From a virus: DNA of 64,000 nt. The translations under genes were made by a program, and so were the position numbers. This document shows, one piece after another, positions 1 to 17,674 of the stretch; position 1 is the first letter of the stretch; each line of letters begins with the position of its first letter. The DNA lies in the IMG/VR virus record IMGVR_UViG_3300036768_000279, positions 1-64,000 of that record; one strand, 5' to 3'. Below the pieces are notes generated by a model. The model was not told the DNA's origin and did no database searches. It saw only the letters and a list, made by a program, of their open reading frames with translations.

Positions 1-2
1 CG

Positions 3-116
3 CCGCCCGATATCGTGAAGGACGCAAAAGTCCTTCTGAGTGAGTGGATATGGCTGCTGCTGTTTGCGATCGTGCTGGGTACGCTTAGCAGATTCTTCCA
101 CTGGACGGACGACTGA
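3..116 (+). CDS. 3' end of a small membrane protein (partial, runs in from window edge)
   Basis: Open frame ...KVLLSEWIWLLLFAIVLGTLSRFFHWTDD* with a hydrophobic segment, followed by a GC hairpin. Confidence 0.5.
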   Translation, partial: PPDIVKDAKVLLSEWIWLLLFAIVLGTLSRFFHWTDD

Positions 117-149
117 TAGGGGGGGGGCGGGTATTACCTGCCCCCCTAA
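117..149 (+). terminator. GC-rich hairpin, probable terminator
   Basis: TAG-G-run-CGGGT ATT ACCTGCCCCCCTA inverted repeat right after the stop codon. Confidence 0.5.
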
Positions 150-164
150 TTCTTGAAATAGAAG

Positions 165-193
165 TTGACAGACCGCACTTTCAAGGGTACTCT
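165..193 (+). promoter_or_regulatory. sigma70-type early promoter
   Basis: TTGACA-17-TACTCT, 8 nt before ATG 202. Confidence 0.75.
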
Positions 194-201
194 TAGTCAT
201 C

Positions 202-396
202 ATGAAGAACAGCACGTTCAACCTCGTTCTGGTTTCGATCATCCTCGCTCTGGTCGTCGGCGGCATTTTCGGATACGCCATCGCAGTGGGTGAAGTCCAT
301 AAGACAGCAGTCGCCAACGGCGTTGGCGAGTGGAGGGCAGTCAACGGCTATTCAAACGAATTCGTCTGGAAGCAGGGCTGCGGTTGCAACCGCTAG
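202..396 (+). CDS. small membrane-anchored hypothetical protein
   Basis: 64-aa ORF with an N-terminal TM helix, directly behind a promoter. Confidence 0.7.
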   Translation: MKNSTFNLVLVSIILALVVGGIFGYAIAVGEVHKTAVANGVGEWRAVNGYSNEFVWKQGCGCNR

Positions 397-446
397 TCCT
401 CAAGGGGTAGAGTATCCTTGTGCAGGCCAGCAAAGGAGAAACGGAC

Positions 447-752
447 ATGCCGAAAAAGGCAAACTTCGTCATCGGCGGGATTGTGGTGATAATGACTAGA
501 GAGCAGGCCGAACGTTGGAACCGTGGGGAGACGACCGATTACGACCTGCGAACCGTGCAGGCCAGTTTGCCAGACGAATACGAGCAGCCGAGCTACCTTC
601 GACGCGGGGGGATATTCATGGGGACGCCACGGCTAATTAGGGCAGGCCAAACTATTACGCTCGCCCGTGCGACGAACCGGCGACTCTCCCCACAAACGGC
701 GGTGGCGATGGACGGCATGCCCGCCGAGCGGTGCGGGGATTGGCACGATTGA
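447..752 (+). CDS. hypothetical protein
   Basis: AAGGAGA SD before ATG 447 (MPKKANF...). Confidence 0.7.
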   Translation: MPKKANFVIGGIVVIMTREQAERWNRGETTDYDLRTVQASLPDEYEQPSYLRRGGIFMGTPRLIRAGQTITLARATNRRLSPQTAVAMDGMPAERCGDWHD

Positions 753-784
753 TAAGCTCCCTGACTAGAAAACATTTCACATGG

Positions 785-811
785 GGCTGGGACGCAATCC
801 CGGCCCTTTTT
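785..811 (+). terminator. intrinsic terminator
   Basis: GGGCTGGGA-CGCAA-TCCCGGCCC then TTTTT. Confidence 0.7.
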
Positions 812-822
812 CGTATTCCTAC

Positions 823-841
823 GGCTGCCATTTTGGCAGCC
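823..841. repeat. TGCCA-N3-TGGCA palindrome, copy 1
   Basis: GGCTGCCA TTT TGGCAGCC. Confidence 0.8.
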
Positions 842-882
842 ACATGTCTATGGTGGCCCCAGGCCCTCGACCATGACACCTA

Positions 883-911
883 AGCATACCACACGAATCG
901 CGTGTTGTCAA
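883..911 (-). promoter_or_regulatory. leftward sigma70-type promoter L1 (no gene downstream)
   Basis: Reverse complement TTGACA-17-TGG-TATGCT; back-to-back with promoter 956-983. Confidence 0.65.
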
Positions 912-955
912 ATGGAATGCTTTTAGAGCAGACAGCAAGAAAAAGAGAAATCACC

Positions 956-983
956 TTGACTTTTTCCCAGAATGAGTTAGTCT
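956..983 (+). promoter_or_regulatory. early promoter
   Basis: TTGACT-16-TAGTCT with an A-rich upstream region. Confidence 0.6.
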
Positions 984-1034
984 ATTGGTGTCCGCAGTGG
1001 ACATTCAACCAACAACAAACGGAGAACACATCAC

Positions 1035-1226
1035 ATGAACACGAACGTCGAAACCAAGCGTGGCCGTGGCCGTCCCGCGACCTTCCCGAACAAGGCAACC
1101 AAGATGGCGGGCTACAACCTCCCCGTCGAGACCCTCGAACTCGTCCGCAAGGCGGCTGCGAAGCGTGAGGTCAACCAGAACCTCCTCGTGGACCGTGCCC
1201 TCCGGGCGTACCTCCGCAAGGGCTGA
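1035..1226 (+). CDS. ribbon-helix-helix (CopG/Arc-like) DNA-binding protein with AT-hook-like N-terminus
   Basis: KRGRGRP motif, then a beta strand (KMAGYNLP) and two helices (LELVRKAAAKR / NLLVDRALRAYL); GGAGA SD. Confidence 0.7.
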   Translation: MNTNVETKRGRGRPATFPNKATKMAGYNLPVETLELVRKAAAKREVNQNLLVDRALRAYLRKG

Positions 1227-1228
1227 TC

Positions 1229-1363
1229 GTGGCACACGAAATCTGGACAGGGCACAGGTACCTCTTCACCTGTGGCTGGAACGAAGACCCCTGGGAAGCC
1301 GCTGCGTACGTACGTGACGCCCGCGTGATCCGAGTGGTGCGAGGAACTCGCACCGAACTGTAA
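1229..1363 (+). CDS. hypothetical 44-aa protein (not in ORF track)
   Basis: GTG start 2 nt after the previous stop; MAHEIWTGHRYLFTCGWNEDPWEAAAYVRDARVIRVVRGTRTEL. Confidence 0.55.
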   Translation: MAHEIWTGHRYLFTCGWNEDPWEAAAYVRDARVIRVVRGTRTEL

Positions 1364-1384
1364 GCCCTGCGGGCTTGGGTTGAG

Positions 1385-1411
1385 AAGGGCTCCGAGAAAT
1401 CGGGCCCTTTT
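1385..1411 (+). terminator. intrinsic terminator
   Basis: AAGGGCTCCGA-GAAA-TCGGGCCCTT TT. Confidence 0.65.
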
Positions 1412-1415
1412 CTCC

Positions 1416-1443
1416 TTGACTTTACTCCTGCGAGGAGCATGCT
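1416..1443 (+). promoter_or_regulatory. early promoter, leaderless
   Basis: TTGACT-16-CATGCT-6-ATG. Confidence 0.6.
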
Positions 1444-1449
1444 CCGAGC

Positions 1450-1947
1450 ATGAATCACTACAACATAGAAGCCGAGGCCCTCGCCATCCGCGAAGAGGTC
1501 ATCCAGAAGTTCCCCGAGTACCTGGATCTGCTGCGTAGCGTCCGCATCCGCGTGTCCAATCGCACGACCCAAGCTCTCGGCGTCTGCCGTTTCAAGGGTG
1601 GCAAGCCCTACGAGATCGTCCTGTCCTTCGCTGCGTACAAGCACGACGAGAACAGGGGCGGGCTGCGTAACACGATGCTGCACGAAATCGCCCACGCCAT
1701 CGCTGGGCATGCGGCGGGCCATGGTCCGGTGTGGCGTGCTGCGGCCCGCAAGGTGGGTGCGACGCCCGAGCGTTGCGGCACGAAGCTAGCCGTGTCCCCT
1801 GTCACGCTCGTGTCGATCGCGTGCTACGTCTGCCAGGGCGAAATCAAGGTGACCCCGAGGCGTGCGGCGAAGGCCAAGCGTGGCGAGCGGTACCGTCACA
1901 CGACCTGTCGCCCGAAGGGCGACAAGTTCTACCCGTTTTTCCTTTGA
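1450..1947 (+). CDS. SprT-like zinc metalloprotease
   Basis: SNRTTQALGVC, LRNTMLHEIAHA (HExxH), GHGPVW...VGATPERC, C-terminal CxxC. Confidence 0.9.
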   Translation: MNHYNIEAEALAIREEVIQKFPEYLDLLRSVRIRVSNRTTQALGVCRFKGGKPYEIVLSFAAYKHDENRGGLRNTMLHEIAHAIAGHAAGHGPVWRAAARKVGATPERCGTKLAVSPVTLVSIACYVCQGEIKVTPRRAAKAKRGERYRHTTCRPKGDKFYPFFL

Positions 1948-2094
1948 CTTATCCCCTGCGGCGAACCTGCTGCATTCCATCTACGGGCCGAAGGACATCG
2001 GAGCTCCAGAAATCAGCATCGTGGATTTCGAGATCGTCGGCGAAGAGGGCGGTCATACCGTCCTGGTCAAGGTCGGCTACGAAATCTGATTTTT

Positions 2095-2165
2095 GTGCTC
2101 GACAACGTGACCTGGAAGGTCAGCGAAGCCGGTCGCCAGCATGTGATCCGCGAGAAAGTGTTCAA
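2095..2165 (+). pseudogene. fragment of a common phage hypothetical gene
   Basis: LDNVTWKVSEAGRQHVIREK resembles (from memory) a widespread phage motif V-S-E-A-G-R-Q-R-V-L-R-E-K-x-K-N-V-H-A, but the frame runs into promoter sequence; no SD. Confidence 0.4.
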
Positions 2166-2197
2166 GTCAAGTTCAACCAAGATTGCAGCGTTTTTGC

Positions 2198-2225
2198 TTG
2201 CGAAAACTCGTGAGCGAGGTATTCT
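2198..2225 (+). promoter_or_regulatory. early promoter, leaderless
   Basis: TTGCGA-16-TATTCT-5-ATG. Confidence 0.7.
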
Positions 2226-2230
2226 AAGAC

Positions 2231-2527
2231 ATGGCACTTCAAGTTCAACTCCTGCAAGACGCCCCCAAGGAAGTCGATCACGCTCCGCTCATGGAACTCA
2301 TGCAGTGGATTCGTGAGAACGGTGATACGGGCTTCTATCTGCCCTACGACAACGGTGAAACGGGATGCTGCGTCGTGGATCTCGGACATATGATCCAGGG
2401 CATCGAGGAATGGCAGGATCCTGACTTCGGTGGTGCGGACGCGGGCATTCCGCCCCCGCCCGACATCCGCGAGTATCTGCAAAAAGAAATCGCGGCTGGT
2501 CGTTGCCTCGCGTGGGTTTCGTGGTAG
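2231..2527 (+). CDS. hypothetical acidic protein
   Basis: 98-aa ORF directly after a promoter. Confidence 0.75.
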   Translation: MALQVQLLQDAPKEVDHAPLMELMQWIRENGDTGFYLPYDNGETGCCVVDLGHMIQGIEEWQDPDFGGADAGIPPPPDIREYLQKEIAAGRCLAWVSW

Positions 2528-2530
2528 AAT
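2503..2530 (+). promoter_or_regulatory. early promoter, leaderless
   Basis: TTGCCT-16-TAGAAT-6-ATG. Confidence 0.7.
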
Positions 2531-2536
2531 ACTGAC

Positions 2537-2857
2537 ATGAAGTACCGCATCATCAAGCACGACAAGCTCAACTGGGCCATCCAGGAATTCCAGGAAGGCG
2601 GCGGGGAAATCTCTCGCGGTCGCTACGCTGGCCAAGAGAAGCAAGAAAAGTGGAAGGCCCCCAAATCCTTCCATCCCTCGATCCGCAATGCGGCCCTCGC
2701 CTTGCTCGATCAGGCAGCGGGTGACGCCCTGCTGAGTGGCGAAGCCACCAGCATCCTCGAAGCCCTCAAGCTCGCGGAGCAGCGTGTGCAGGCTACGCTT
2801 GCGGTCATCGACATGGGGGTGGCGTATCCGCCCCCGCCCTCTCAGGAGGCTGTATGA
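2537..2857 (+). CDS. hypothetical protein
   Basis: 106-aa ORF directly after a promoter, coding-like codon usage. Confidence 0.75.
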   Translation: MKYRIIKHDKLNWAIQEFQEGGGEISRGRYAGQEKQEKWKAPKSFHPSIRNAALALLDQAAGDALLSGEATSILEALKLAEQRVQATLAVIDMGVAYPPPPSQEAV

Positions 2858-3012
2858 GCCGCGACCAGCAATACTGCGATGATTGCGGTGAGCCCATCAA
2901 GGACAAGAACTTCTACGCAATCACGAATCTAAAGGCGGACGCTTCTTCCGCCAACAAGGGAGAGAGTGCGATCCTATGTCTATGCTGTTTCAAGAAACAG
3001 CCCTCAGAATGA
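2854..3012 (+). CDS. small zinc-finger-like protein (52 aa, not in ORF track)
   Basis: AGGAGG SD, ATGA overlap; CDDC...CLCC. Confidence 0.65.
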   Translation: MSRDQQYCDDCGEPIKDKNFYAITNLKADASSANKGESAILCLCCFKKQPSE

Positions 3013-3024
3013 GGGCTATACTCC

Positions 3025-3052
3025 TTGACTTTTCTATGTGGCGTGCTATTCT
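3025..3052 (+). promoter_or_regulatory. early promoter
   Basis: TTGACT-16-TATTCT with extended TG; AGGAGA SD downstream. Confidence 0.75.
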
Positions 3053-3073
3053 TTGTTCTCTAGGAGAACAACT

Positions 3074-3235
3074 ATGGCACGCAACAAGAAGCAACGTCTC
3101 CCGCATGAAGTGGAGAAGCTGAAGGCCCGTTGTGCGGGCATGGCCTCGACCACGAAGAACCGCAAGACCCGTTTCAAGGATAGACGCAAGGATGCGTCTA
3201 GGAAGGCATGCCGTGGACAACAAAACGAAGACTGA
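3074..3235 (+). CDS. small highly basic protein
   Basis: MARNKKQR...FKDRRKDASRKACRG; SD AGGAGA. Confidence 0.65.
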   Translation: MARNKKQRLPHEVEKLKARCAGMASTTKNRKTRFKDRRKDASRKACRGQQNED

Positions 3236-3434
3236 TCTGGTAGCACAGTCCGAAGCGGAAGCTGCAAGGCTCAAGGCTGAGGGGTGGACCCAAAAGGACT
3301 TCGCACTAGCTCTTGTGAAGGCTCTTTGCGTATTCCATGACGTGACGCCATACGACCTGAGGGCTGTCGCTTTCAAGCTCAAAAAAGAACAACACAAACT
3401 ACTTGACGATTGGTTAGAATCGAGTATCCTCTAA
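3213..3434 (+). CDS. hypothetical protein
   Basis: GTG start after AGGAAGG; helical ORF. Confidence 0.6.
   Translation: MDNKTKTDLVAQSEAEAARLKAEGWTQKDFALALVKALCVFHDVTPYDLRAVAFKLKKEQHKLLDDWLESSIL
3403..3430 (+). promoter_or_regulatory. early promoter, leaderless
   Basis: TTGACG-16-TATCCT-6-ATG 3437. Confidence 0.65.
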
Positions 3435-3436
3435 CC

Positions 3437-3689
3437 ATGGCACAACTCGCAAAAACTTCCTACCAAGCATCACAAGGCTTTCGAGCGATTGCGTGAGCTT
3501 CGTGACACGATCGGATTCGGGGTCGCCGATGGCTATGCGTGGTACCTCGTTAAGAGCCGCAAGCCGCTTGTGTTGCAGCACATCGACTACCTCGATGGCT
3601 ACAGCGTGTCCGCCGCTATGATTCGCGGCCTGCGTACCGAGGACATCGACGCCCACGCTCGCCGTAGCAAGATGGGGTTCAAGTTCTAG
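3437..3689 (+). pseudogene. hypothetical phage gene split by a one-base frameshift in an A5 run
   Basis: Leaderless ATG gives MAQLAK; the body (LPTKHHKAFERL...GVADGYAWY) is in the +1 frame after AAAAA 3451-3455. Confidence 0.6.
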
Positions 3690-3718
3690 GGCTTCGCCCT
3701 AGAGTACCGGGTCGATGG

Positions 3719-3746
3719 GGGGCCGCTTTAAACGGCCCTCTTTTTC
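3719..3746 (+). terminator. intrinsic terminator
   Basis: GGGGCCGC TTTAA ACGGCCCT CTTTTT. Confidence 0.65.
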
Positions 3747-3872
3747 TATTTCAAGATAGCTTTGCTTGAAAAGCAAAAAGCTCAGTGATCCCCTCAAAAT
3801 GCTTACATAGAGAATTTCAGGAATCTCCGGGATTTCTTTACATTTACTTACATGGTGGCCACGCCACCAGGG

Positions 3873-3900
3873 TGCCAGAATGGCGGCTGGCATAACGGCA
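3873..3900. repeat. TGCCA-N3-TGGCA palindromes (degenerate pair)
   Basis: TGCCA GAA TGGCG and TGGCA TAA CGGCA. Confidence 0.6.
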
Positions 3901-3964
3901 GGAAAGAATTTCCTACGCACAAGTGCGTACGAAAAATAGCCCTTTCAGGGCTAGCCCCTCCTCA

Positions 3965-3993
3965 AGTATACCATAAAATCGCAAGGGAAGCAA
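3965..3993 (-). promoter_or_regulatory. leftward promoter L2 (no gene downstream)
   Basis: Reverse complement TTGCTT-17-TGG-TATACT; followed within about 30 nt by hairpin TAGCCCT-GAA-AGGGCTA-TTTTT. Confidence 0.7.
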
Positions 3994-4018
3994 GGGGAAA
4001 ATAAAAAAATCTTTTTGC

Positions 4019-4046
4019 TTGCATTCTCCCGATCCTAGGGTATAAT
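4019..4046 (+). promoter_or_regulatory. early promoter, leaderless
   Basis: TTGCAT-16-TATAAT-6-GTG. Confidence 0.8.
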
Positions 4047-4052
4047 TGTGGC

Positions 4053-4685
4053 GTGAACGAAACGAAAACGTCCGAGCTACTGGCAATCGTCGGCGGTCTC
4101 TCGAAACCGTCAAAAATGCCCGGCTTGGCATACGGCATTCCTGCCCAAGCGTGCAAGGTGGGGAGCCTACTCCGCAATATCAAGGGCTCAACGTGCGGCT
4201 CGTGCTACGCTCTCAAGGGTATGTACGTTTTGCCGCGTGTCCGCAAGGCGTTGGAGCGTAGGCTGGAAAGCCTTTCCAATCCCTTGTGGACGGCTGCTAT
4301 GACGGAACTGCTTTCCCGCAAGTGCAAAAAAGTTCCCTATTTCCGATGGCATGATGCGGGAGATATCCAAAGCCTGGAACATCTTTCCAAGATCGTGCAA
4401 ATCGCGAAAAATCTGCCGGGAATCAATTTCTGGCTGCCCACCCGCGAGACATCGATCCTGAAAGAGTTTCTCGCTCAGGGAAATACCTTCCCTGCCAATC
4501 TGACGGTTCGAGTGTCCGCCCCCATGATCGGGCGGGCACCCGAAAAGATTTCCGGCACCGTGGGGTCGAGTGTCGGAAATCCTGCCGCATTCCAGTGTCC
4601 GGCCCCCAAACAAGGAAATTCTTGCCAGGAATGCCGTGCCTGCTGGGATGCCAAGGTGGAAGAGGTGTCCTATTCGAAACACTGA
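4053..4685 (+). CDS. phage Gp88-like (radical-SAM-like Fe-S) protein
   Basis: LSKPSKMPG, CKVGS...STCGSCYALKG, FRWHDAGD, FWLPTRE, CPAPKQGNSCQECRACWD. Confidence 0.8.
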   Translation: MNETKTSELLAIVGGLSKPSKMPGLAYGIPAQACKVGSLLRNIKGSTCGSCYALKGMYVLPRVRKALERRLESLSNPLWTAAMTELLSRKCKKVPYFRWHDAGDIQSLEHLSKIVQIAKNLPGINFWLPTRETSILKEFLAQGNTFPANLTVRVSAPMIGRAPEKISGTVGSSVGNPAAFQCPAPKQGNSCQECRACWDAKVEEVSYSKH

Positions 4686-4783
4686 TAACGAACATTCTTC
4701 CTTCATCCTCAGTGTGCTCTTTTTTCTGTTCATCCTTGCGATTGCAGGGACTATCCTGAAAGGATTTCACACCTAACCTAGAC

Positions 4784-4825
4784 GGTGCCTGCCGAAATGG
4801 CAGGCACCGCTATGCCATAATGGCA
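4784..4825. repeat. TGCCA-N3-TGGCA palindromes (pair)
   Basis: GGTGCCTGCCG AAA TGGCAGGCACC and TGCCA TAA TGGCA. Confidence 0.8.
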
Positions 4826-4851
4826 GGAAAAAATGGCTACGCTGGCACCTA

Positions 4852-4880
4852 AGTATATCCCGCGAGCGGGATAAGGCTAG
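4852..4880 (-). promoter_or_regulatory. leftward promoter L3 (no gene downstream)
   Basis: Reverse complement CTAGCC-17-TATACT; sequence after the -10 (TAGGTGcCA) matches L1 (TAGGTGtCA). Confidence 0.5.
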
Positions 4881-4914
4881 CAGAATCCCGAAAAAAAGAA
4901 AAAGAAAATTCCCC

Positions 4915-4942
4915 TTGCCTTTTCCAGCCGATAGGGTACAAT
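4915..4942 (+). promoter_or_regulatory. early promoter
   Basis: TTGCCT-16-TACAAT, A-tract UP element, 5' hairpin in the leader. Confidence 0.75.
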
Positions 4943-4997
4943 TTAGACGTTCAAGCAATTCGCTTGGACGCACCTACCAAAACGGCAAGGCACCACC

Positions 4998-5372
4998 ATG
5001 AACGTTTCGATTGTCTCTCGTGCCGATGCGGTCCGCATGATCCGCGAGGCTCGCGGCATGATCTCCGTCTACTCCGTCAAGCGTGCCGACGGTTCGCTAC
5101 GTCGGTTCAACGGGTTCGCCGCGTGCAATCTCAGCAACGCGGAGCGGGCCGCGAGCACGAATGGGAAGGGAATGCCATTCGATCCCCTCGCTCACAATCT
5201 CATCCCTTTCTACGAAATGGTTTCCGAGTGCCAGAATGGTACTCGCGTCGTCAATGGTCGCACGATTGATTGCAAGATACGTCGCACGGTCGGAAAGCAA
5301 TTCAGAAACATCGCCATCGAAGGTATCCGTGCCTTCAAGGCCAGCGGCAGGACTTACACCGTTGCCGATTGA
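4998..5372 (+). CDS. hypothetical protein, possible SH3/Sm-like beta-barrel
   Basis: SVYSVKRADGSLRRFNG ... IPFYEM ... FRNIAIEGI pattern typical of phage SH3-fold proteins. Confidence 0.6.
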   Translation: MNVSIVSRADAVRMIREARGMISVYSVKRADGSLRRFNGFAACNLSNAERAASTNGKGMPFDPLAHNLIPFYEMVSECQNGTRVVNGRTIDCKIRRTVGKQFRNIAIEGIRAFKASGRTYTVAD

Positions 5373-5390
5373 ATTGTCCCGACGAATTCT

Positions 5391-5418
5391 CTAGACTTTT
5401 CCAGCTATAGGGTAACCT
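5391..5418 (+). promoter_or_regulatory. orphan early-type promoter with no ORF behind it
   Basis: CTAGAC-TTTTCCAGCTATAGGG-TAACCT; spacer nearly the same as that of promoter 4915. Confidence 0.5.
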
Positions 5419-5562
5419 ATAGTGCGATTGAGCGGGCCGAAAACGGCCCGCTGCCGCGTGCTCGCTCGCTCGCCGATAGCTTAGCTACGCGGGCGGGCGG
5501 AGCGTTCGCCCTAGGCCCGCGTAGGACGTTATAGGGCAAATCGAGTTTTTTGATTTTTCCCC

Positions 5563-5590
5563 TTGCTTTTTCGAGCCGCTAGGGTATACT
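5563..5590 (+). promoter_or_regulatory. early promoter
   Basis: TTGCTT-16-TATACT-5-ATG. Confidence 0.75.
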
Positions 5591-5595
5591 TCGGC

Positions 5596-5904
5596 ATGAT
5601 TAGGAAAGGGCACGCAATGGTAAGCATCACCTGGCACGGGCTGGAAATCACGGGCAACGTCGAGCATGACGCCGGGGTCCGCACGTTCTCGAACGGCGAT
5701 CCCGGCTATCCAGCCTCAACAGAAGTCTACGACATCGAAATCGAGGGCGTGGACGACGCGGAAGAGTTTTCCGCCCTGCTCGAAGAGCACGAAAAGCCTT
5801 CCGAGTGGAAGAGTCTTCCGCAAGAGGCAAGGGATTGGATCCTCTCGAAATGGGAAGATACCATCGCGGAAAAGTTCATCGACCGCTATTTTGAAGATAG
5901 ATAG
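5596..5904 (+). CDS. hypothetical acidic protein (start 5596 or 5617)
   Basis: ORF behind promoter; D/E-rich, contains NGDPGYP. Confidence 0.7.
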   Translation: MIRKGHAMVSITWHGLEITGNVEHDAGVRTFSNGDPGYPASTEVYDIEIEGVDDAEEFSALLEEHEKPSEWKSLPQEARDWILSKWEDTIAEKFIDRYFEDR

Positions 5905-5980
5905 CGGGTCTCGTGAGGGCCGGAAACGGCCCTCCGCTCTAGAGCGTTATATGCAATTGCGTGATTCTCGCAAATTCCCC

Positions 5981-6008
5981 TTGCCTTTTTCGTGCCCTAA
6001 TGTATATT
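5981..6008 (+). promoter_or_regulatory. early promoter, leaderless
   Basis: TTGCCT-16-TATATT-5-ATG. Confidence 0.75.
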
Positions 6009-6013
6009 AGGGC

Positions 6014-6466
6014 ATGAAGCGTCTAGTTCTGTTGCGTGGACCCTCTGGCTCCGGCAAGTCCACGCTCGCCAGCAAGATCCTGGGGACGCAATGCTCCAGT
6101 GCTCGTCATTTCGAAGCGGATCAGTTCTTCTACAATGACGGCATGTACGAATTCGATGCCTCCAAGCTGGCACAGGCTCACAGGGACTGCCAGCGTCGAG
6201 TTCGTGCCGCTATGGAAACCGGCGAGGAATTGCTGGTCGTCTCGAATACCAGCATGACACTTTGGGAGCTAGCTCCCTACTTGGCGATGGCCAAGGAATT
6301 CGGTTACGAAGTCGTAGTCTACCGTACCAAGGGGCCGTGGGACGCAGCCCTATTCGCGTCACGTAATCTTCACGGCGTGGCTAAGGATACTATACAAAAG
6401 CAAATCAACAAGTATCAGCCGCTCGAATACGAAGCCGAGTTCGAGACGGGAATCGATGGCAAGTAA
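6014..6466 (+). CDS. P-loop kinase (AAA_33 / polynucleotide-kinase-like)
   Basis: LLRGPSGSGKSTLA Walker A, HFEADQFF, AHRDCQ, VVSNT, RNLHGV. Confidence 0.9.
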   Translation: MKRLVLLRGPSGSGKSTLASKILGTQCSSARHFEADQFFYNDGMYEFDASKLAQAHRDCQRRVRAAMETGEELLVVSNTSMTLWELAPYLAMAKEFGYEVVVYRTKGPWDAALFASRNLHGVAKDTIQKQINKYQPLEYEAEFETGIDGK

Positions 6467-6588
6467 CCACTAACGGGGTACGGGGCGGGCCTGCGGGCTC
6501 GCCCCTTAGCTACGTTCGTCGTCGGCCCGCATAGCCTAGGGCCGTTTCCGGCCCGTATAGGGTAAATCGCTTTTTCGAGGAATTCCCC

Positions 6589-6616
6589 TTGCTTTATTCA
6601 CCCGCGATGGTATACT
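6589..6616 (+). promoter_or_regulatory. early promoter, leaderless
   Basis: TTGCTT-16-TATACT-5-ATG. Confidence 0.75.
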
Positions 6617-6621
6617 CTGGA

Positions 6622-6810
6622 ATGCAAAAGCAGACGATTATCACTATCTCGCGGGAAGACCTTTTCAAGTTGCTGGCCGAAAAGGGTTACGCTGTTCCGT
6701 CCACCGCTATCGTGATCAATGGTCCGCAGGATTGTACCAGCAACGTGGAATTCCCTATCGTGGTTTCGTGGGCGACAGTGCCTGATAGCACAAGCGATCC
6801 TAGAGCGTGA
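6622..6810 (+). CDS. hypothetical protein
   Basis: MQKQTIITISREDL..., leaderless start. Confidence 0.65.
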   Translation: MQKQTIITISREDLFKLLAEKGYAVPSTAIVINGPQDCTSNVEFPIVVSWATVPDSTSDPRA

Positions 6811-6840
6811 TAGAGCCAATCAAAAAACTAGGTTTTCGCC

Positions 6841-6869
6841 TTGCTTTTTTCGAGTCTGTAAGCTATTCT
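6841..6869 (+). promoter_or_regulatory. early promoter, leaderless
   Basis: TTGCTT-17-TATTCT-AAGAC-ATG (same junction as at 2220-2233). Confidence 0.75.
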
Positions 6870-6874
6870 AAGAC

Positions 6875-7162
6875 ATGGGCAAGCAACCGCTCGAAATCCA
6901 GCGGCATCTAGTCGCGAGTCTCGCACATATTTCAACAAATGATGCCAAACTCCTAGCAGAGGATGGCGTTATCGTGATTCACGACTACGAGGAAGGTTTT
7001 TGTATCCACGTCAACGGCGTGGAAGATTCTTTCCTGCGTGGCTTCGGCTATTCCGAGTCATTCCTCAGACTCATGTCGCTCGCTCGTGAGAACGCGTGCG
7101 ACTATCTCACCATTGATCGGGACGGACCCGAAATCGACGGCCTCGAAACGTTTTCGAGGTAA
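6875..7162 (+). CDS. hypothetical protein, DUF5983-like
   Basis: LVASLAHIS..D...L, YEEGF, LARENACDYLTIDRDGPEIDGLETF. Confidence 0.65.
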   Translation: MGKQPLEIQRHLVASLAHISTNDAKLLAEDGVIVIHDYEEGFCIHVNGVEDSFLRGFGYSESFLRLMSLARENACDYLTIDRDGPEIDGLETFSR

Positions 7163-7349
7163 GCATGGGTGGCGAGTGTCGCTCGCCACTACGCTACTCG
7201 TCCGCTGTTTTACAACCTCACGAAACGGGCTAGAAATGGCTATGCGGACGCTATTTCAAGCGTACGCAAAAAATTCCGGGAGTCCTGTTACATGCCTTTA
7301 CAGGACATGCCCTACCCCTGGACCGCCCGATTGTAAGGGAAGTGTAAAC

Positions 7350-7424
7350 TGCCAAGGTGGCAGGAAAACTCTTCCGTTTCGAGATCGTGGCGGAAAACGA
7401 TTCCGCCCATCCGCCATATCGGCA
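7350..7424. repeat. TGCCA-N3-TGGCA palindromes (two copies)
   Basis: TGCCA AGG TGGCA (7350-7362) and CGCCA TAT CGGCA (7412-7424). Confidence 0.7.
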
Positions 7425-7441
7425 GGTGAGAACACTTTTCC

Positions 7442-7470
7442 AGTATACCTTATGCTTATCAGCCTGTCAA
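7442..7470 (-). promoter_or_regulatory. leftward promoter L4 (no gene downstream)
   Basis: Reverse complement TTGACA-17-TATACT, near consensus. Confidence 0.75.
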
Positions 7471-7510
7471 TAGGAAAATCCTTCCCTATTGTAAAATGGC
7501 TATTTTTCGT

Positions 7511-7538
7511 TTGCTTCTTGGCCAGTCTAGGCTATAGT
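7511..7538 (+). promoter_or_regulatory. early promoter, leaderless
   Basis: TTGCTT-16-TATAGT-6-ATG. Confidence 0.7.
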
Positions 7539-7544
7539 GGTCGC

Positions 7545-7739
7545 ATGGAGACGACTACAGAAGCTGAACTGGCAGAGTATGTCGCAGAAGCGATGCGAGA
7601 ATATTCTACGCTCGCTCCTCTAGAGGCTACGATCGCTCTTGCTCTTGCAGAAGCTCGTGAGACTATCTTATTTCTCGCTCCTCGCAAGGCACGCACGGCA
7701 GAACGCCGCAAGAATCGAGACGCAAAAGAATCCGAATAA
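7545..7739 (+). CDS. hypothetical protein (true start METTTE)
   Basis: Leaderless start; the longer 7038 ORF in the track crosses regulatory DNA. Confidence 0.6.
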   Translation: METTTEAELAEYVAEAMREYSTLAPLEATIALALAEARETILFLAPRKARTAERRKNRDAKESE

Positions 7740-7812
7740 GTCTAACAGTATCTCGTGAGAATGCCGATACCTTTAGTGCGAGAATTATCTCGCACCTAGC
7801 AGAGAATAGACC

Positions 7813-7971
7813 ATGAAACCCAAGCAAGAAAAGCTTGCCTTGACCAGCATCAACCGTCTCCTCGCGGAACTCTTTTACCAGCATCCCAAGACCGGGAAAA
7901 AGGTTGTCGATCCCGCGAAGATGCGGGCCTTGGCGGCAAGGATTGCCGCCAAGGCAGGGAAGCTATCGTAG
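7813..7971 (+). CDS. small basic protein (52 aa, not in ORF track)
   Basis: MKPKQEKLALTSINRLLAELFYQHPKTGKKVVDPAKMRALAARIAAKAGKLS. Confidence 0.6.
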   Translation: MKPKQEKLALTSINRLLAELFYQHPKTGKKVVDPAKMRALAARIAAKAGKLS

Positions 7972-7996
7972 GCAATTTGCTTTTCTAGAAATCTAC

Positions 7997-8025
7997 TGGA
8001 CAAGGGCGACAGTCTCAGGTATACT
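7997..8025 (+). promoter_or_regulatory. early promoter
   Basis: TGGACA-17-TATACT, followed by a 5' hairpin and AAGGA. Confidence 0.65.
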
Positions 8026-8069
8026 GTTGCGTTCCGATGGTGGAACGTCAATCCAAGGAAACGCCAATC

Positions 8070-8171
8070 ATGCAAAATCTTCGCAGCCTCTCGATACTTC
8101 TGCTTTTCGTCCCCGTCACCGTCATTGTGTGCGTCGTACTCGTGAGGCTTTCGAGTATGCTACCGGCGTGA
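8070..8171 (+). CDS. 33-aa single-TM peptide
   Basis: MQNLRSLSILLLFVPVTVIVCVVLVRLSSMLPA. Confidence 0.55.
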   Translation: MQNLRSLSILLLFVPVTVIVCVVLVRLSSMLPA

Positions 8172-8204
8172 GAGCGAATAGGCAAGTCTTGCCAGGGGCG
8201 ACCA

Positions 8205-8239
8205 GCCTGCCATACTGGCAGGCTGCGGCCATTTTGGCG
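8205..8239. repeat. TGCCA-N3-TGGCA palindromes (pair)
   Basis: GCCTGCCA TAC TGGCAGGC and GGCCA TTT TGGCG. Confidence 0.75.
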
Positions 8240-8338
8240 GGGGGAAGGGGTTTTTTCACCGTGGAAAGACTTTCAACATCCCCGCTGCCGGGGGGGTGGT
8301 TTTTAGCCGGGGTGACGACCTTTCCACAACCTCTCTCC

Positions 8339-10171
8339 TCAGGTGTTTCGCTGTGCGAACACTCGCTCCCCTTCTTGGTTTTCAAGCACCGCTTGGAGCG
8401 TACCGCCCCAGGACTTGTCGGCGTTAGCTTGCAGCCACGCTAGCTTTTGTGGTAGCGTAGCTGCCACAACCCAATTTTGAAGCGACGCTTCAAGCCATCG
8501 CTTGTCTCGCGTAGCAAGGAAGGTCAGTGCAAGCACTTGCGAAACGTGTGCGGCGTCACCACCACCATTACTATGCTCTGTTGTTATCGCAACAGGTACA
8601 TTATCGATGTGAGTCCAAACCCAGTGAGGCGGACCCTTCACGGCTCCATCGGGACTGTATTCTTCTGGTATCGTCGGCATTTCGGGGTTGTCTAACAACG
8701 CAGCACACATACGGCGAAGTTTATTTGCCGGAGAACGTCTCATCTGATTACAAGCGGCGTGAAAGCCGATTGCAATAATCATTTCGTGGAACGTCTGAAT
8801 ACCCTGAATGTTTGGCTCTGGGAATTGAGCAGCATAGTTGCGTCCCACAATGCCATTCGGCATCATGGCCTTGTCGCACATGCTAATCATCTTTCGGAGC
8901 CAACTACCTTGATATCTTCCCATGCGGTGCATCATGGCTCCGAGGTATAGCGACCAACCATAAGCTCGATCGCAGTGCGGCGAGCCTTGATGTGGCCATT
9001 CATTGATGTCGTACAAATACGCTCTAATTGAGGGCGGGGTGTAGTCGTGGTCGTGCTCGATTTCGTCTCCACGATCCGAGAACTGAACAAATCTCATATG
9101 CTGAAAAAGCATTTCAAGATCGTCAGCGATCATCGGATCGTGAGTGTACTCCCAAACTGCGATGCCGTGTTGAATGGCTCGGATATAGTGAGAGATCCAC
9201 ACAGACTTGTACGCCCACACATCCTCGCGGCGGGACGAAGGCCCTGCATTGAACCATGCATATTGGGCGTTGTCCCAGCCGCCAGACAAGAAAATTGGCA
9301 GTTCGTTTTCCCACTGCCACATTCCCTCGCCACGGATTTGGGCGATTTGCTGAGGAGCCGGAAAGTCGGCGGGCTTCATCTGATTGCCATTGCTATCGAA
9401 AATCGCGGCATTCATGCGATCCATCCAACGACTATGCTTCCAGCGGCGGAGCAGAATGTTGCTTCGCGAACGTTCATAGCCGAAGTTTGGATTGATGCCG
9501 TTACCGCCGTGAGCGTATGGCTGCAATTCGCCTGCGGGCTGACGGGGCCCAATACGTGGAGCTTCGGATTCCCAAGAGCCCTGTGGATTTCCACTTTTCC
9601 AAGCCTCTATCCATTGGCGATATTCAGAGGCGGATTGATTTTCATAGTCATGACCCGCTACCGAAGGTAGCGGAAGTTCGCTTGGTCCAAAATTGCCAGC
9701 AAGCGGCTCCCAAGAGTGATCTTCGATGTCACTATACGTTAGTTTGCTCTTTGCAAGCTCAATTAGTTCGGGACGACAAACAGCAAAGCGTGACTCAAAG
9801 ACAGCACGCGGCAAGAAATCGAGAGCTTCGCCTTCGTAGATGACAACTTCGGCACCTACGGTACCATCTTCCATTACTACAACATGCCCCACTGGGGCTG
9901 TCAGTTTGTAGCTCGTATATCGTACGACTCCACGCCAGAAGATGGCATTGTCCGAAATCGCACGATCAAGCGTACCATTGTTTGTACGCAGACCGCACAA
10001 ATGTACGCCGTCAGACGAATCGACGTACAAATGGTTGCCCATCAAGTTTGGCTGACCAGCACGCTGAAAGCGTGCGTGTTGTTTGCCTTCGGCCAGCGGT
10101 AAACTCGCCGAAAAATCGCCGACATCGGCGACACCCATTGACACAGTTAGAGTAGGTCGTCTGCGTTGCAT
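8339..10171 (-). CDS. large hypothetical protein (~610 aa), possibly a carbohydrate-active enzyme
   Basis: Long aromatic-rich ORF with beta-rich N-half and helical C-half; preceded by a late-type motif. Confidence 0.75.
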   Translation of the reverse strand: MQRRRPTLTVSMGVADVGDFSASLPLAEGKQHARFQRAGQPNLMGNHLYVDSSDGVHLCGLRTNNGTLDRAISDNAIFWRGVVRYTSYKLTAPVGHVVVMEDGTVGAEVVIYEGEALDFLPRAVFESRFAVCRPELIELAKSKLTYSDIEDHSWEPLAGNFGPSELPLPSVAGHDYENQSASEYRQWIEAWKSGNPQGSWESEAPRIGPRQPAGELQPYAHGGNGINPNFGYERSRSNILLRRWKHSRWMDRMNAAIFDSNGNQMKPADFPAPQQIAQIRGEGMWQWENELPIFLSGGWDNAQYAWFNAGPSSRREDVWAYKSVWISHYIRAIQHGIAVWEYTHDPMIADDLEMLFQHMRFVQFSDRGDEIEHDHDYTPPSIRAYLYDINEWPHQGSPHCDRAYGWSLYLGAMMHRMGRYQGSWLRKMISMCDKAMMPNGIVGRNYAAQFPEPNIQGIQTFHEMIIAIGFHAACNQMRRSPANKLRRMCAALLDNPEMPTIPEEYSPDGAVKGPPHWVWTHIDNVPVAITTEHSNGGGDAAHVSQVLALTFLATRDKRWLEASLQNWVVAATLPQKLAWLQANADKSWGGTLQAVLENQEGERVFAQRNT

Positions 10172-10183
10172 GATAGCTATCAA

Positions 10184-10191
10184 TACACTAC
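10184..10191 (-). promoter_or_regulatory. late-type motif variant
   Basis: GTAGTGTA-TT on the minus strand, 12 nt before ATG 10171. Confidence 0.5.
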
Positions 10192-10439
10192 AGAGGACGC
10201 CAATATTGCGTTTTGATAAAGTAGTTACGCTGTTCCGGCGAAACCATGGCCTCTAAGGGCTTTTCTAGATGTCCAGGGAAATGATATAAGGCCCTTCCCT
10301 TAACTTCGTTGTACGTGACTGTGAAGCCATCTTGACACTGGTAATGCTCGTCAAATGACTCCGCAACGTTTTTCAGGGCATCCTGCAATTCGTGCGGTTT
10401 CATGCGATAACGCTCTATGATGTCGTTTAGATCAGCCAT
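10188..10439 (-). CDS. hypothetical protein
   Basis: MADLNDIIERY... Confidence 0.65.
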   Translation of the reverse strand: MADLNDIIERYRMKPHELQDALKNVAESFDEHYQCQDGFTVTYNEVKGRALYHFPGHLEKPLEAMVSPEQRNYFIKTQYWRPL

Positions 10440-10500
10440 TTCGCTTTTTTCTTTTTCCAGTGAACACCAACAAAAGATCCAAGGGGTAATAGTCACCAAT

Positions 10501-11001
10501 TCATGTGAGTTTTCTTTGGACGTTTGTTAGTTGACGAATTAATGAAGCGATGCGATGTTTTTTGCGACCAGTGATCACAAGAAACCAAGGAATCCATTTG
10601 TTGTGCTCTTCTGTATGCCAAATACGGAAGAACCAGTCGTGGTCGTGTTTTACAATCTTGCCGGTCTCAGGATCAGACACATAAATATTGTCATCGTCAT
10701 ATCCTACGACAACGACATAGTGACCGCCCTCAGGAGTCAGAATATGCACGATCGGCAAACGATGCCGGTCAATCTCTTTCTTGAGCTTCTTGAAATTACC
10801 AGCACTACTTTCCTTGAAAGTGAAGCCAAGGGTCTTGAGGCCGTCAAAGTCGCTTGTGCCGTTTCTGTTCGTGGCGAGGACTACAGACAATTCTGTGTCT
10901 GTAAGATCGAGTCCGAACTGGTAGTACAAGACCGTACGAACAGCAGCCGGACCACAAGTCCAGCGTTGTTGTTGTCGAAACGGCTTGACATCCAGAATCA
11001 T
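10501..11001 (-). CDS. C39-family cysteine peptidase
   Basis: QQQRWTCGPAA, GHYVVVVGYDDDNIYVSDP catalytic Cys/His/Asp. Confidence 0.9.
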   Translation of the reverse strand: MILDVKPFRQQQRWTCGPAAVRTVLYYQFGLDLTDTELSVVLATNRNGTSDFDGLKTLGFTFKESSAGNFKKLKKEIDRHRLPIVHILTPEGGHYVVVVGYDDDNIYVSDPETGKIVKHDHDWFFRIWHTEEHNKWIPWFLVITGRKKHRIASLIRQLTNVQRKLT

Positions 11002-11147
11002 TTCAGCAACTCACATCTTCCTCTTTTGATCACTTCATCGAGTCTTAGCACAAGTTCGATGATTAAAGTATAGCGATGCCCTCGTTTTGCTGATTACACT
11101 CAGGGCGGTCATTGTCCAGTCCTTTTCAGGACCATCCCCTGGGATCA

Positions 11148-11300
11148 TTAAGATGTTGTGACAACAATATGTAGCATGTCTCCGTGCGTACGCGAGTGTT
11201 CGCGTCCAATCACTTGACAGCGTTGACCTTTGTATGTCACGTACTGTCCGCCAGTGCTAGCACATGACGCTAGTAGAAGAGCAAGAACGAAGTATTTCAT
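11148..11300 (-). CDS. small lipoprotein
   Basis: MKYFVLALLLASC lipobox; ATGA coupling. Confidence 0.65.
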   Translation of the reverse strand: MKYFVLALLLASCASTGGQYVTYKGQRCQVIGREHSRTHGDMLHIVVTTS

Positions 11301-11788
11301 TGTACGAATCCGGGGGTCCAAATTTCCATGTTGTAGTGACACGTTACAGGAACGGGCGAACTAACCCTTACATGGAATCCATTGTCATAAACCCCAACCG
11401 GCAGATTTAACACAACCAGTTCGCCAGGATCGCCGATAAAATGAGCCACCATATCCGATGTCTCGTTTTCAAGATCTTGTGCGAAAATAAAAACCTCAAT
11501 TGGGGCGTGATTTGTGCTGTTGATGACCATCGACACAATCTCGCTGGACGGAGCGAAAAAGTGATACCAGTCTTGATCGTTGACCGTACCAATGTCGCCA
11601 TTCACAAACAAATGATCTGGCGGCGTGAATACAGAAACAAAACTAGCCGTATCGATTGAGTCGTTCGGCTCTAGATCAAAAACGGGCGGAGGCGGCGGCG
11701 GAGGTCCGTCACCATGACCACCTTCATGCGGAATAGCACGAGGCCCGCAACTAGCAAGCAGCATAGCAATCAAAGCAAATTGCTTCAT
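11297..11788 (-). CDS. lipoprotein with Pro linker and pre-peptidase C-terminal (PPC)-like beta domain
   Basis: LLASC lipobox, poly-Pro, EPNDSIDTA...DQDWYHF. Confidence 0.75.
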   Translation of the reverse strand: MKQFALIAMLLASCGPRAIPHEGGHGDGPPPPPPPVFDLEPNDSIDTASFVSVFTPPDHLFVNGDIGTVNDQDWYHFFAPSSEIVSMVINSTNHAPIEVFIFAQDLENETSDMVAHFIGDPGELVVLNLPVGVYDNGFHVRVSSPVPVTCHYNMEIWTPGFVQ

Positions 11789-11880
11789 TGTGGATATACC
11801 TTGTCGATGTCATTATTCACGAACACGAAATGGGCAACCGTCTGACTTACGGTTACAACGACAACGAAGATGATGTTGAG

Positions 11881-11909
11881 AGTTTACTATGTGATGTCGG
11901 TCTTGTCAA
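11881..11909 (-). promoter_or_regulatory. sigma70-type promoter
   Basis: TTGACA-17-TAAACT. Confidence 0.7.
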
Positions 11910-12805
11910 GCGATTTCCTTGCCGATACGTTCGACAAGCCAATCGTCCCAGAAAGTACGATCCACCGTTTTGGGCAGATCTGAATTTTCTGCCAGAATCT
12001 CAACTTCCTTGAGAATTTCGTCTAGCAGAGTTTGCACTAGTTCCAAACTTGTGTCACCACGCTTGATCGCAAGCAACATATCTGCCTTTTCAAGCGGGAA
12101 TTTGATTTCGCGAGTGAGTAGCAACTCGCGAAGTTCAAGTGATACGCGAACGGCATGGCTCATCGCTTTCCAGTCCACGCCAGCTTTACTGGCGTTGGCA
12201 CGCTTGCCATACCCATCAATGATCCGCTGTACGCTTTCGCGTACATAGCGGATCTGTGTCGTAGCCCCAAACCACTTTCCAGCGATTTGGACTTCTTGAA
12301 CGCCATGCACATTGATACGCTGATCATCTCGCGGTAGTTTATCAGCCACCGCAGACAATAGCTCGTCGCCATGGGCGGACTCTAGGACGCCCAGGAACGC
12401 CTCAAGGTTGGATCGACGTTCGCCCTTTAGGCTGTACTTGGCAGCCTGACCACGAGCGTAGCCAATGAAGGCGTTCATACGCTTAGATAGAAACTTATGC
12501 CGTAAGGCATGAAGCTGATCCCAGATGTATCCAGCCTCACCACGTTCCACCTGCCACTCTGGCGTCCAGAGCATATCGAATGCCACCGTTTGACCTTCGC
12601 ACGCAAGTTTCACGAAATGGTGAAGAGAGTACAACTCATAATCATCTTCTTTTCCAGCTTCCTGCTCTTTGTTTGTGCGTGGGATGCGACCCAACAAAAC
12701 GTCACGCTTTGATGGAATGAATATTCCACGCACATCAATGTCAGACGTTGGCGTTGCCGTCCCATATAGGTGGCTACCAAAGCGAGTCTTGCAGATGATC
12801 TTCAT
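11906..12805 (-). CDS. Pol-beta superfamily nucleotidyltransferase (phage Nuc-transf/RlaP-like)
   Basis: FGSHLYGTATPTSDIDVRGIFIP, DWKAMSHAVR, LLAIKRG. Confidence 0.9.
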   Translation of the reverse strand: MKIICKTRFGSHLYGTATPTSDIDVRGIFIPSKRDVLLGRIPRTNKEQEAGKEDDYELYSLHHFVKLACEGQTVAFDMLWTPEWQVERGEAGYIWDQLHALRHKFLSKRMNAFIGYARGQAAKYSLKGERRSNLEAFLGVLESAHGDELLSAVADKLPRDDQRINVHGVQEVQIAGKWFGATTQIRYVRESVQRIIDGYGKRANASKAGVDWKAMSHAVRVSLELRELLLTREIKFPLEKADMLLAIKRGDTSLELVQTLLDEILKEVEILAENSDLPKTVDRTFWDDWLVERIGKEIA

Positions 12806-12952
12806 GAATCGAATGTCGTATTCAGCATTCCATCACAGTCTTAATATCGTCAAGCACGCTTGACCGTGATAGAACATGATTATCGAGCCGTGAATGATTT
12901 GCTTGAGTAGTGTTCGACATGACAAATGATCTCGGGCTTGAGCCAAATGTCA

Positions 12953-13768: not shown

Positions 13769-13814
13769 ATAACATTCCTAGCATAGGATTTTGATACTCA
13801 TTGATTGTGTCCGC

Positions 13815-14012: not shown

Positions 14013-14014
14013 TT

Positions 14015-16432: not shown

Positions 16433-16438
16433 ACTTGA

Positions 16439-16467
16439 ATTATAGCCCGTTCTCAATGACTTGTCAA
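16439..16467 (-). promoter_or_regulatory. perfect consensus sigma70 promoter
   Basis: TTGACA-17-TATAAT-6-ATG. Confidence 0.85.
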
Positions 16468-17673: not shown

Positions 17674-17674
17674 G

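Follow-up and report, generated by a model that had tools for sequence, protein, structure and literature searches.

Why should a virus direct near-consensus promoters into intergenic DNA where there is no gene to transcribe? The question is raised by the 64-kb stretch analysed here (the window), the first part of the 147,927-bp IMG/VR virus record IMGVR_UViG_3300036768_000279. In its early region four leftward promoters, L1 to L4, stand back to back with the rightward promoters of small genes and fire into clusters of TGCCA-N3-TGGCA palindromes. We read each arrangement as a composite cis-regulatory cassette, in which the palindromes are putative protein-binding sites and the orphan promoter would make short non-coding transcripts that control the neighbouring gene. 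From the sequence comparisons below, we put the probability of this reading at roughly 0.4. A 127-bp repeat at the termini of the record probably reflects overlap in the assembly, which makes coordinate 1 an arbitrary choice.

Four leftward promoters of the early promoter family

Positions 1-8300 carry about 17 small rightward genes, each behind a separate promoter, and these promoters belong to a single family (CCCCTTGCnTTTT ... tAGGGTATAnT). The genes are mostly leaderless, with the ATG 5-6 nt 3' of the -10. The rightward early block is closed by a convergent boundary at about 8.2-8.3 kb. G+C content is 52-59% within the block (1-8000) and 45-52% in 10000-64000. Megablast of the region against the phage database gave no match. 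A simple consensus scan found 12 promoter-like sites in 9 kb, compared with 4.6 +/- 2.3 in shuffles. A position matrix trained on 15 rightward promoters only was used to scan both strands of the 147,927 bp; a cut-off score of at least 12 yields 50 sites genome-wide, and the ranks given here refer to these 50.

All four leftward sites are on the minus strand and pass this cut-off. L1 (883-911; TTGACA-17-TATGCT with an extended TG) matches 10/12 positions in the consensus scan and has a matrix score of 16.1 (rank 21), L2 (3965-3993; TTGCTT-17-TATACT) scores 23.9 (rank 8), L3 (4852-4880; TAGCCT-16-TATACT) scores 19.5 (rank 12), and L4 (7442-7470; TTGACA-17-TATACT) matches 11/12 in the consensus scan with a matrix score of 13.1 (rank 37). 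The -35 of L3 is poor by the E. coli consensus and matches the phage's own TTGCCT at 5/6 positions. By the matrix, the four are good members of the phage's own sigma-70-type early promoter family.

Each has a rightward partner on the plus strand. The partner of L1 (956-983, score 24.7) drives a ribbon-helix-helix gene at 1035-1226, that of L2 (4019-4046, score 23.6) drives GP88 (4053-4685) as a leaderless mRNA, that of L3 (4915-4942, score 30.5) precedes the gene at 4998-5372, and that of L4 (7511-7538, score 17.7) the leaderless gene at 7545-7739. For the pairs L1 to L4 in turn the -35 elements are 44, 25, 34-35 and 40 bp apart, with an A/T tract across each gap, and the distance from the likely leftward start to the stop codon of the upstream gene is 124, 268, 160 and 272 bp, all of it intergenic and palindrome-rich. 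The intrinsic terminator of the upstream rightward cassette (783-807, plus strand) lies at the far end of the L1 stretch. L3 aims at palindromes and beyond them at the 3' end of GP88. About 22-30 nt past the L2 start there is a terminator-like hairpin with a T-run (3937-3953, minus strand).

L1 and L3 have TAGGTGYCA in common 3' of the -10. The motif is similar to GGTGT, the start context seen at non-leaderless promoters of the phage, that of the ribbon-helix-helix gene included, and is therefore probably a trait of the promoter family and not a special signal.

A first-pass annotation, made from the letters and their open reading frames alone, had proposed four near-consensus minus-strand promoters set 25-44 bp from rightward ones over an A/T tract, leftward arms facing non-coding hairpin-rich DNA, a TAGGTGyCA common to L1 and L3, and a terminator-like hairpin soon after L2. 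The scans agree with it on each point: the matrix scores of 13.1-23.9 place all four within the genome's top 37 sites, the spacing is found at all four pairs, the arms run through 124-272 bp that fold with z values below shuffles (see below), the shared motif is present though like the general GGTGT start region, and the hairpin lies at 3953..3937.

Two palindrome families in the cassettes

From left to right, the order of elements in the cassette is the upstream terminator, TTACAT/TGTAA boxes, one to three TGCCA-N3-TGGCA palindromes, the leftward promoter, the A/T tract and the rightward promoter of the next gene; the palindromes are often interleaved with a second palindrome, GGAA-N5-TTCC. 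We call the modules at L1 to L4 modules A to D, and G-numbers denote the related phage genomes described in the next section.

Exact TGCCA-N3-TGGCA occurs four times genome-wide, every copy within 826-8220, a count that was not reached in 100 shuffles. The palindrome of module A, TGCCATTTTGGCA (826-838, with 8-bp arms as GGCTGCCA...TGGCAGCC), lies 45 bp downstream of the L1 -10 and is identical in G002 and G011. Module B holds a run of palindromes at 3851-3929: TGGTGGC..GCCACCA, TGCCAGAATGGCG (3873), TGGCATAACGGCA (3888), GGAAAGAATTTCC (3901) and TACGCACAAGTGCGTA (3914). Its TACGCAC palindrome is also present in G004, and 3900-3931 matches DNA of G007. The palindromes of module C (4790-4825) are TGCCGAAATGGCA, inside a hairpin with 11-bp arms, and TGCCATAATGGCA; those of module D (7350-7424) are TGCCAAGGTGGCA, GGAAAACTCTTCC, GGAAAACGATTCC and CGCCATATCGGCA. 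A fifth cluster at 8208-8239 marks the end of the rightward early block and is kept in G002 and G003. It has no leftward promoter, the best minus-strand matrix score there being -3.6.

Beyond the palindromes of module B are CTTACAT / CTTTACAT boxes (3796-3850), with homologous boxes in G001, G002 and G005. Boxes of the kind CTTACAT, CTTTACA or TGTAA(A/G) occur in 2-4 copies per module in either orientation, on the palindrome side distal to the leftward promoter (window 3796-3850 and 7285-7350; locus L005 9720-9760 and 10480-10520; locus L105 4080-4130). The modules of G001, G010 and G008 contain an extra conserved box, AGAAACCGTAGAAGTGTGAGA ... CTTAACGTATATATA.

There are 10 exact copies of GGAA-N5-TTCC in 3800-7600 (at 3901, 4265, 4304, 4376, 4479, 5760, 5807, 7363, 7392 and 7473), compared with 0.11 in dinucleotide shuffles, an enrichment of about 100-fold, and 0 copies of the reverse arrangement. 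The motif abuts TGCCA palindromes in the modules (in G002 the order is GGAAAgatTTTCC-TGCCAgaaCGGCA-gcc-GGAAAgatTTTCC) and also falls within coding DNA; the GP88 gene holds 4-7 copies of it in the window, G001, G002 and G007. By coordinates read by eye, several of these GP88-internal copies match in position among the relatives. None was found in 79 GP88 genes of other phages. GGAA-N5-TTCC is enriched in 7/8 relatives whose early regions were scanned, and both palindrome types are 20- to 100-fold enriched, in an orientation-specific manner, in the early regions of most relatives. The palindromes are conserved in sequence, over-represented and clustered near promoters, as in an operator array. 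By these counts the GP88 locus, bracketed by L2 and L3 in the window, is a hot spot of cis-acting sites.

Such a hot spot might also be a replication origin or nucleoprotein hub, above all at the modules flanking GP88, with the palindromes as iterons and the orphan promoters providing activation or a primer. The origins of lambda, T7 and T4 combine iterons or promoters with A/T-rich DNA. What speaks for such a role here is the A/T tract between the divergent promoters, the density of orientation-specific palindromes both outside and inside GP88 (the 10 GGAA-N5-TTCC copies fall within 3.8 kb), and the contrast between four clade genomes with these copies in GP88 and the 79 genes with none. However, the A/T tracts are only about 20-25 bp long, G001 and G010 have about 190 bp of G+C-rich DNA between the promoters, and the DNA downstream of the leftward promoter is G+C-rich and not an unwinding element. 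With four to five copies per genome and no initiator gene identified, we consider an origin improbable. Priming of replication and a role as RNA polymerase sinks, both named in the first-pass annotation, are candidate functions on sequence alone.

Conservation of the promoter-palindrome unit

Relatives were found through GP88 (PF17338), which led to G001 (170 kb), and through the portal protein, which gave nine further genomes at 60-84% identity. A search with a 19-nt exact DNA pattern returned only G002 and G011, besides unrelated coding matches. The TGCCA palindrome is present in all nine genomes found by the portal protein, with its consensus fixed across this range of divergence. In G001, three palindromes upstream of GP88 are followed by a leftward TTGACT-16-TATACT promoter.

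For an association test, the early regions of nine genomes (the window and eight relatives) were oriented alike and the 150 bp to the right of each TGCCA-N3-TGGCA cluster were compared with background windows. Of the 21 clusters, 11 have a leftward promoter that reaches at least the 95th background percentile, and 14 have one that reaches at least the 90th. When 17 modules are compared in register the promoter fires toward the palindromes every time, and the palindromes start 17-140 nt downstream of it. An alignment of seven modules from the window and G001 contains an invariant AGTATA, which is the leftward -10 on the plus strand. Modules A and C are paralogues, both promoters included, L3 being the paralogue of L1. 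The A/C paralogy, the seven-module alignment and the association in most relatives agree with the first-pass view of a repeated regulatory module.

The window, G002, G004 and G007 agree in the placement of the promoter pair upstream of GP88: the leftward -10 is about 85 bp before the start codon, with a 25-bp gap to the rightward -35, in surroundings that can hardly be aligned. Inserted DNA has shifted the leftward promoter in G001 and G005. The hexamers of the L1 orthologue are kept through substitutions in G002 and G011 (in G002, TTGACA becomes TTGACG and TATGCT becomes TATAGT), and the L4 orthologue in G002 is TTGATA / TATACT. Upstream sequences read by eye revealed leftward promoters before the ribbon-helix-helix gene in six further relatives. 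Some G005 modules keep the palindromes with only -35-like remnants beside them. As judged from these alignments, the promoter-palindrome unit is conserved and not universal, and the palindromes occur more widely than the leftward promoter does.

Orientation and orthology also bear on whether the leftward promoters are relics, left by an inverted cassette duplication during recombination that shuffles one-gene cassettes and without a function of their own. Paralogy of modules A and C through both promoters would be expected from such a history, as would intergenic cassettes swapped between the window and G002, the decayed duplicate promoter at 1944-1971, and a G001 leftward promoter that has a complete leaderless start (TATACT-TGGGT-ATGAAG) like that of a rightward gene. 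Yet the hexamers and their spacing are kept at orthologous places though the flanking non-coding sequence no longer aligns, and the orientation to the palindromes is consistent in 16-17 modules, where neutral promoters would be expected to decay. We give the relic explanation little credence.

At modules A and B the upstream gene is different in the window and G002, whereas the downstream gene, GP88 or the ribbon-helix-helix gene, is unchanged. Genes have been inserted or deleted at module A and intergenic cassettes swapped between the two genomes; the module C site of G002 holds another cassette type, a GATAGCTTAGCTACGCGGGC block with a promoter, of which there are at least 8 copies in that genome. 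The module travels with the downstream gene and not with the upstream one, as expected if the cassette controls its neighbour. Since the downstream gene is constant and the upstream gene variable, the cassette is best seen as the 5' control region of the right-hand gene and not as an antisense device against the left-hand gene. Antisense action on upstream 3' ends, one of the roles first suggested for the leftward transcripts, is on the same grounds unlikely as a conserved role.

RNA product or DNA site

Another role first suggested for the leftward transcripts was that of a family of small RNAs. The leftward promoters would then be small functional RNA genes, each product carrying one to three hairpins of the form CCUGCCA-NNN-UGGCAGG and acting as a protein decoy or as cis-antisense to read-through transcripts. 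In line with this, U-rich loops predominate on the leftward-sense strand (19:7), as do G.U-compatible variants (12:6), among sites that are not all independent; a terminator follows L2; the last palindrome in G001 forms a hairpin with a T-run at +88; and L1 and L3 have the GGTG start context of the phage's non-leaderless promoters.

Most of the structural evidence points elsewhere. No Rfam family matched window 1-18500 (E up to 1) or four related loci that hold the modules of relatives (E up to 0.1). The L1 to L4 stretches fold with z values against shuffles of -2.5, -2.5, -4.8 and -2.2 on the minus strand and -4.1, -4.3, -3.8 and -2.9 on the plus strand, so that the plus strand is as good or better in 3/4 stretches. 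Better folding than shuffles on both strands is expected from palindromes, and we rejected a strand-specific RNA structure because both strands fold equally well. No compensatory double changes were found in the stems across the genomes, where one consensus sequence is kept, and on the leftward-sense strand the pairing is broken by a C.A mismatch at six sites.

Nor is a constant transcript predicted. We found no conserved intrinsic terminator after the leftward promoters; terminator-like sites follow L2 (+22), G001 X1 (+61 and +88) and few other modules, and in module B of the window the terminator precedes the palindromes. Predicted transcript length is not conserved either. Box order is rearranged between orthologues, module D of G002 having the palindromes and TGTAA boxes the other way round from module D of the window, and palindrome copy number is variable, with a 29-bp tandem duplication in G002 and the precise loss of a palindrome from one G001 module. 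A G005 module keeps its palindromes without an adjacent -10. A whole-genome search for trans antisense targets of the leftward RNAs returned, at 13 nt or longer, only other palindromes or chance matches.

Because there is no Rfam match, no compensatory change, no conserved terminator and no target, and because the strands are symmetric and box order and copy number are flexible, we favour the palindromes as putative protein-binding boxes in DNA over structured RNA. The structured small-RNA family of the first-pass annotation, for which an Rfam search had been named as one check, is not supported by these comparisons, and we regard small functional RNAs as an unlikely account of the leftward promoters. 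A sigma-54 promoter reading of TGGCA was also rejected, as the required spacing to a TTGC element is absent by eye.

Coding potential of the leftward arms

The leftward arms contain short frames only, and successive palindromes are read in different frames. The case to be weighed is a 73-codon minus-strand frame behind L2 (3920..3699), which is also open in G002 (98 codons). Aligned over 71 residues, the two are 55% identical and need one gap only, which is in frame. In the protein-guided alignment dN/dS is 0.30 and the differences at the three codon positions number 21, 18 and 33, a third-position bias. An 8-codon frame, MVEGLGPP, is likewise kept in G002 as MVEDRGPP. One could therefore propose that the leftward arms encode small proteins.

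For the 73-codon frame, however, the G002 counterpart has no ATG or GTG, the window frame has no Shine-Dalgarno sequence, and a terminator lies between L2 and the frame. Nucleotide alignment of the region prefers gaps that are not multiples of three. Homologues were found neither in G001, G004 and G007, where the orthologous module is present, nor in G003, G011 or IMG/VR, and the conserved C-terminal part of the frame is the reverse complement of the upstream terminator. We judge small proteins highly improbable. The earlier statement that the leftward arms hold no gene stands in that no open reading frame is conserved, and needs qualifying in that this one frame is open in the closest relative, G002.

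The 8-codon frame (850-876, minus strand) starts 8 nt past the L1 -10 and is followed by a stop codon, as is its counterpart in G002 (locus L103 11264-11290). An 8-codon frame can be read from the plus strand of this DNA as well, and the conservation may be chance in an imperfect palindrome.

Candidate binding proteins

The gene to the right of module A (1035-1226) encodes a 63-aa ribbon-helix-helix protein with an AT-hook-like RGRGRP arm. The fold is assigned from a weak profile match to CopG and Arc and a model with a pLDDT of 76; nearly all of the structures that Foldseek listed for this model are ribbon-helix-helix proteins, at a target TM of 0.76-0.84. The protein is present in 8/9 relatives. 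Its 5' leader (984-1034) has a hairpin of its own that is clade-dependent, TGTCCrCAGTGGACA in the window and G002 and GCCCC..GGGGC in other genomes, and the changes in this hairpin parallel changes in the DNA-reading beta-strand of the protein. Because the beta-strand and the leader hairpin vary and the palindrome is fixed, the protein is a poor match as the palindrome binder, and we consider it an unlikely candidate. A ParB/KorB-type binder was rejected on the absence of a ParB domain from the genome.

GP88 (4053-4685) belongs to PF17338. It has no solved relative and no literature was found on PF17338; the protein atlas returns only PF17338, with no function assigned.

A model for the cassette

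From the anatomy of the cassette and its conservation we infer binding at the palindromes, blockage of leftward transcription and an effect on the neighbouring promoter. In the model, L1 to L4 would be working early promoters for the host sigma-70-type RNA polymerase, and the palindromes DNA sites of a putative conserved dimeric binding protein. Leftward polymerase would meet bound palindromes or hairpins almost immediately, so that its non-coding RNAs would all be short and heterogeneous. What counts would be that transcription occurs and is blocked, and not the sequence of the RNA. Occupancy of the shared upstream region would be set in this way, tuning the rightward promoter of GP88, of the ribbon-helix-helix regulator and of two other genes. 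The downstream gene may also be insulated from the upstream cassette.

Several observations weigh against this model. The palindromes lie mostly downstream of the promoter core and not over it. Neither obvious binder fits: no ParB domain was found in the genome, and the beta-strand of the ribbon-helix-helix protein differs between genomes while the TGCCA palindrome is constant. G009 and G006 have no leftward promoter, and about 190 bp separate the two promoters in G001 and G010, which means that the shared A/T tract is not a conserved core. The central triplet is T-rich on the leftward-sense strand at 19 sites and A-rich at 7, and G.U-compatible variants number 12 in the leftward sense and 6 on the other strand, in both cases with sites that are not all independent. 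This loop polarity and G.U bias is weak, and would not be predicted by a purely symmetric DNA site.

A bolder proposal is that the two palindrome families and the orphan promoters together form a previously undescribed control system. Transcription into arrays of bound palindromes or of hairpins would act as a gate, with either a sponge RNA that takes up a nucleic-acid-binding protein of host or phage, or a transcription-activated, origin-like nucleoprotein hub at GP88. We think this distinctly unlikely.

Other intergenic cassettes

Intergenic cassettes of a second type consist of the GATAGCTTAGCTACGCGGGC block and a rightward promoter. They are found in the window at 5420-5590 and 6470-6616, and in locus L102 of G002 at 8047, 9441, 9861, 11660, 12061, 12602, 13311 and 13864. 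In G001 the block sits between the leftward and rightward promoters. The block has a faint likeness to the 5' half of a tRNA. Near GP88 in G001 (locus L005 6990-7170) and G009 (locus L143, about 110-310) there are promoter-driven tRNA-like sequences whose acceptor/T-arm end (GGTTCGAATCCTGCC...) is normal and whose interior carries a long insertion; neither ARAGORN nor Rfam made a call for them.

G002 also contains several near-identical one-gene cassettes (locus L102 1-6400 and locus L103 11330-11811), with an identical promoter and a hexapeptide-repeat-like protein (…TIGKNATIG…). These are inserted between module A and the ribbon-helix-helix gene. In the window, a leaderless-type ATG at 3437 opens a frame of 19 codons only, and a 66-codon open reading frame without a good start (3489-3689) lies in a different frame. 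The arrangement could be due to a frameshift, an alternative start or a sequencing error.

Relation to known systems and significance

The closest described system is that of the PeSL (promoter-early stem-loop) cassettes of T4-type phages, in which a terminator stem-loop and a host-type early promoter lie between small variable early genes (PMC2839356, PMC4122927). The likeness is in the repeated terminator and early-promoter composites and in the gain, loss and replacement of genes at the cassettes, as here. PeSLs carry a single promoter, co-directional with the genes. Compared by architecture, a subset of the present cassettes differs in having the orphan divergent promoter, the 13-bp palindromes and the TTACAT boxes, in an unrelated clade with leaderless mRNAs.

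Lambda oop, P22 sar and T7 A0 are host-polymerase promoters directed against neighbouring genes in an early or immunity region, where no protein is made and the product is short or its role obscure. The present promoters are analogous in opposing neighbouring genes without a protein product. The oop and sar transcripts each have a defined terminator and a defined target mRNA with which they overlap, whereas here there are four copies per genome, transcribed intergenic palindromes, no conserved terminator and a variable upstream gene.

Dispersed palindromic operators are known from RK2 KorB, with 13-bp operators, and from CopG, with a 13-bp symmetric element. By analogy, a 13-bp palindrome is repeated here at variable distances from promoters, and a ribbon-helix-helix gene lies by one module. 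The differences are the lack of a ParB/KorB domain, the variation of the local ribbon-helix-helix protein, and sites placed downstream of the orphan promoter and not over promoter cores. The hairpin promoters of the phage N4 virion RNA polymerase, with a 5-7-bp stem and a 3-nt loop, resemble TGCCA-NNN-TGGCA in shape only, as the early genes here use sigma-70-type promoters.

Early regions decide host takeover, and their control in uncultured large phages is almost uncharted. The comparisons define a compact conserved cassette of about 150-400 bp, with two back-to-back host-type promoters and two over-represented palindromes, that is synthesisable and directly testable without a known host. Leftward RNAs that turned out to have a function would represent phage non-coding RNA of a new type. 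Should a conserved factor bind the palindromes, they would give access to the timing switch of an entire clade of phages, and the promoters without genes would be explained.

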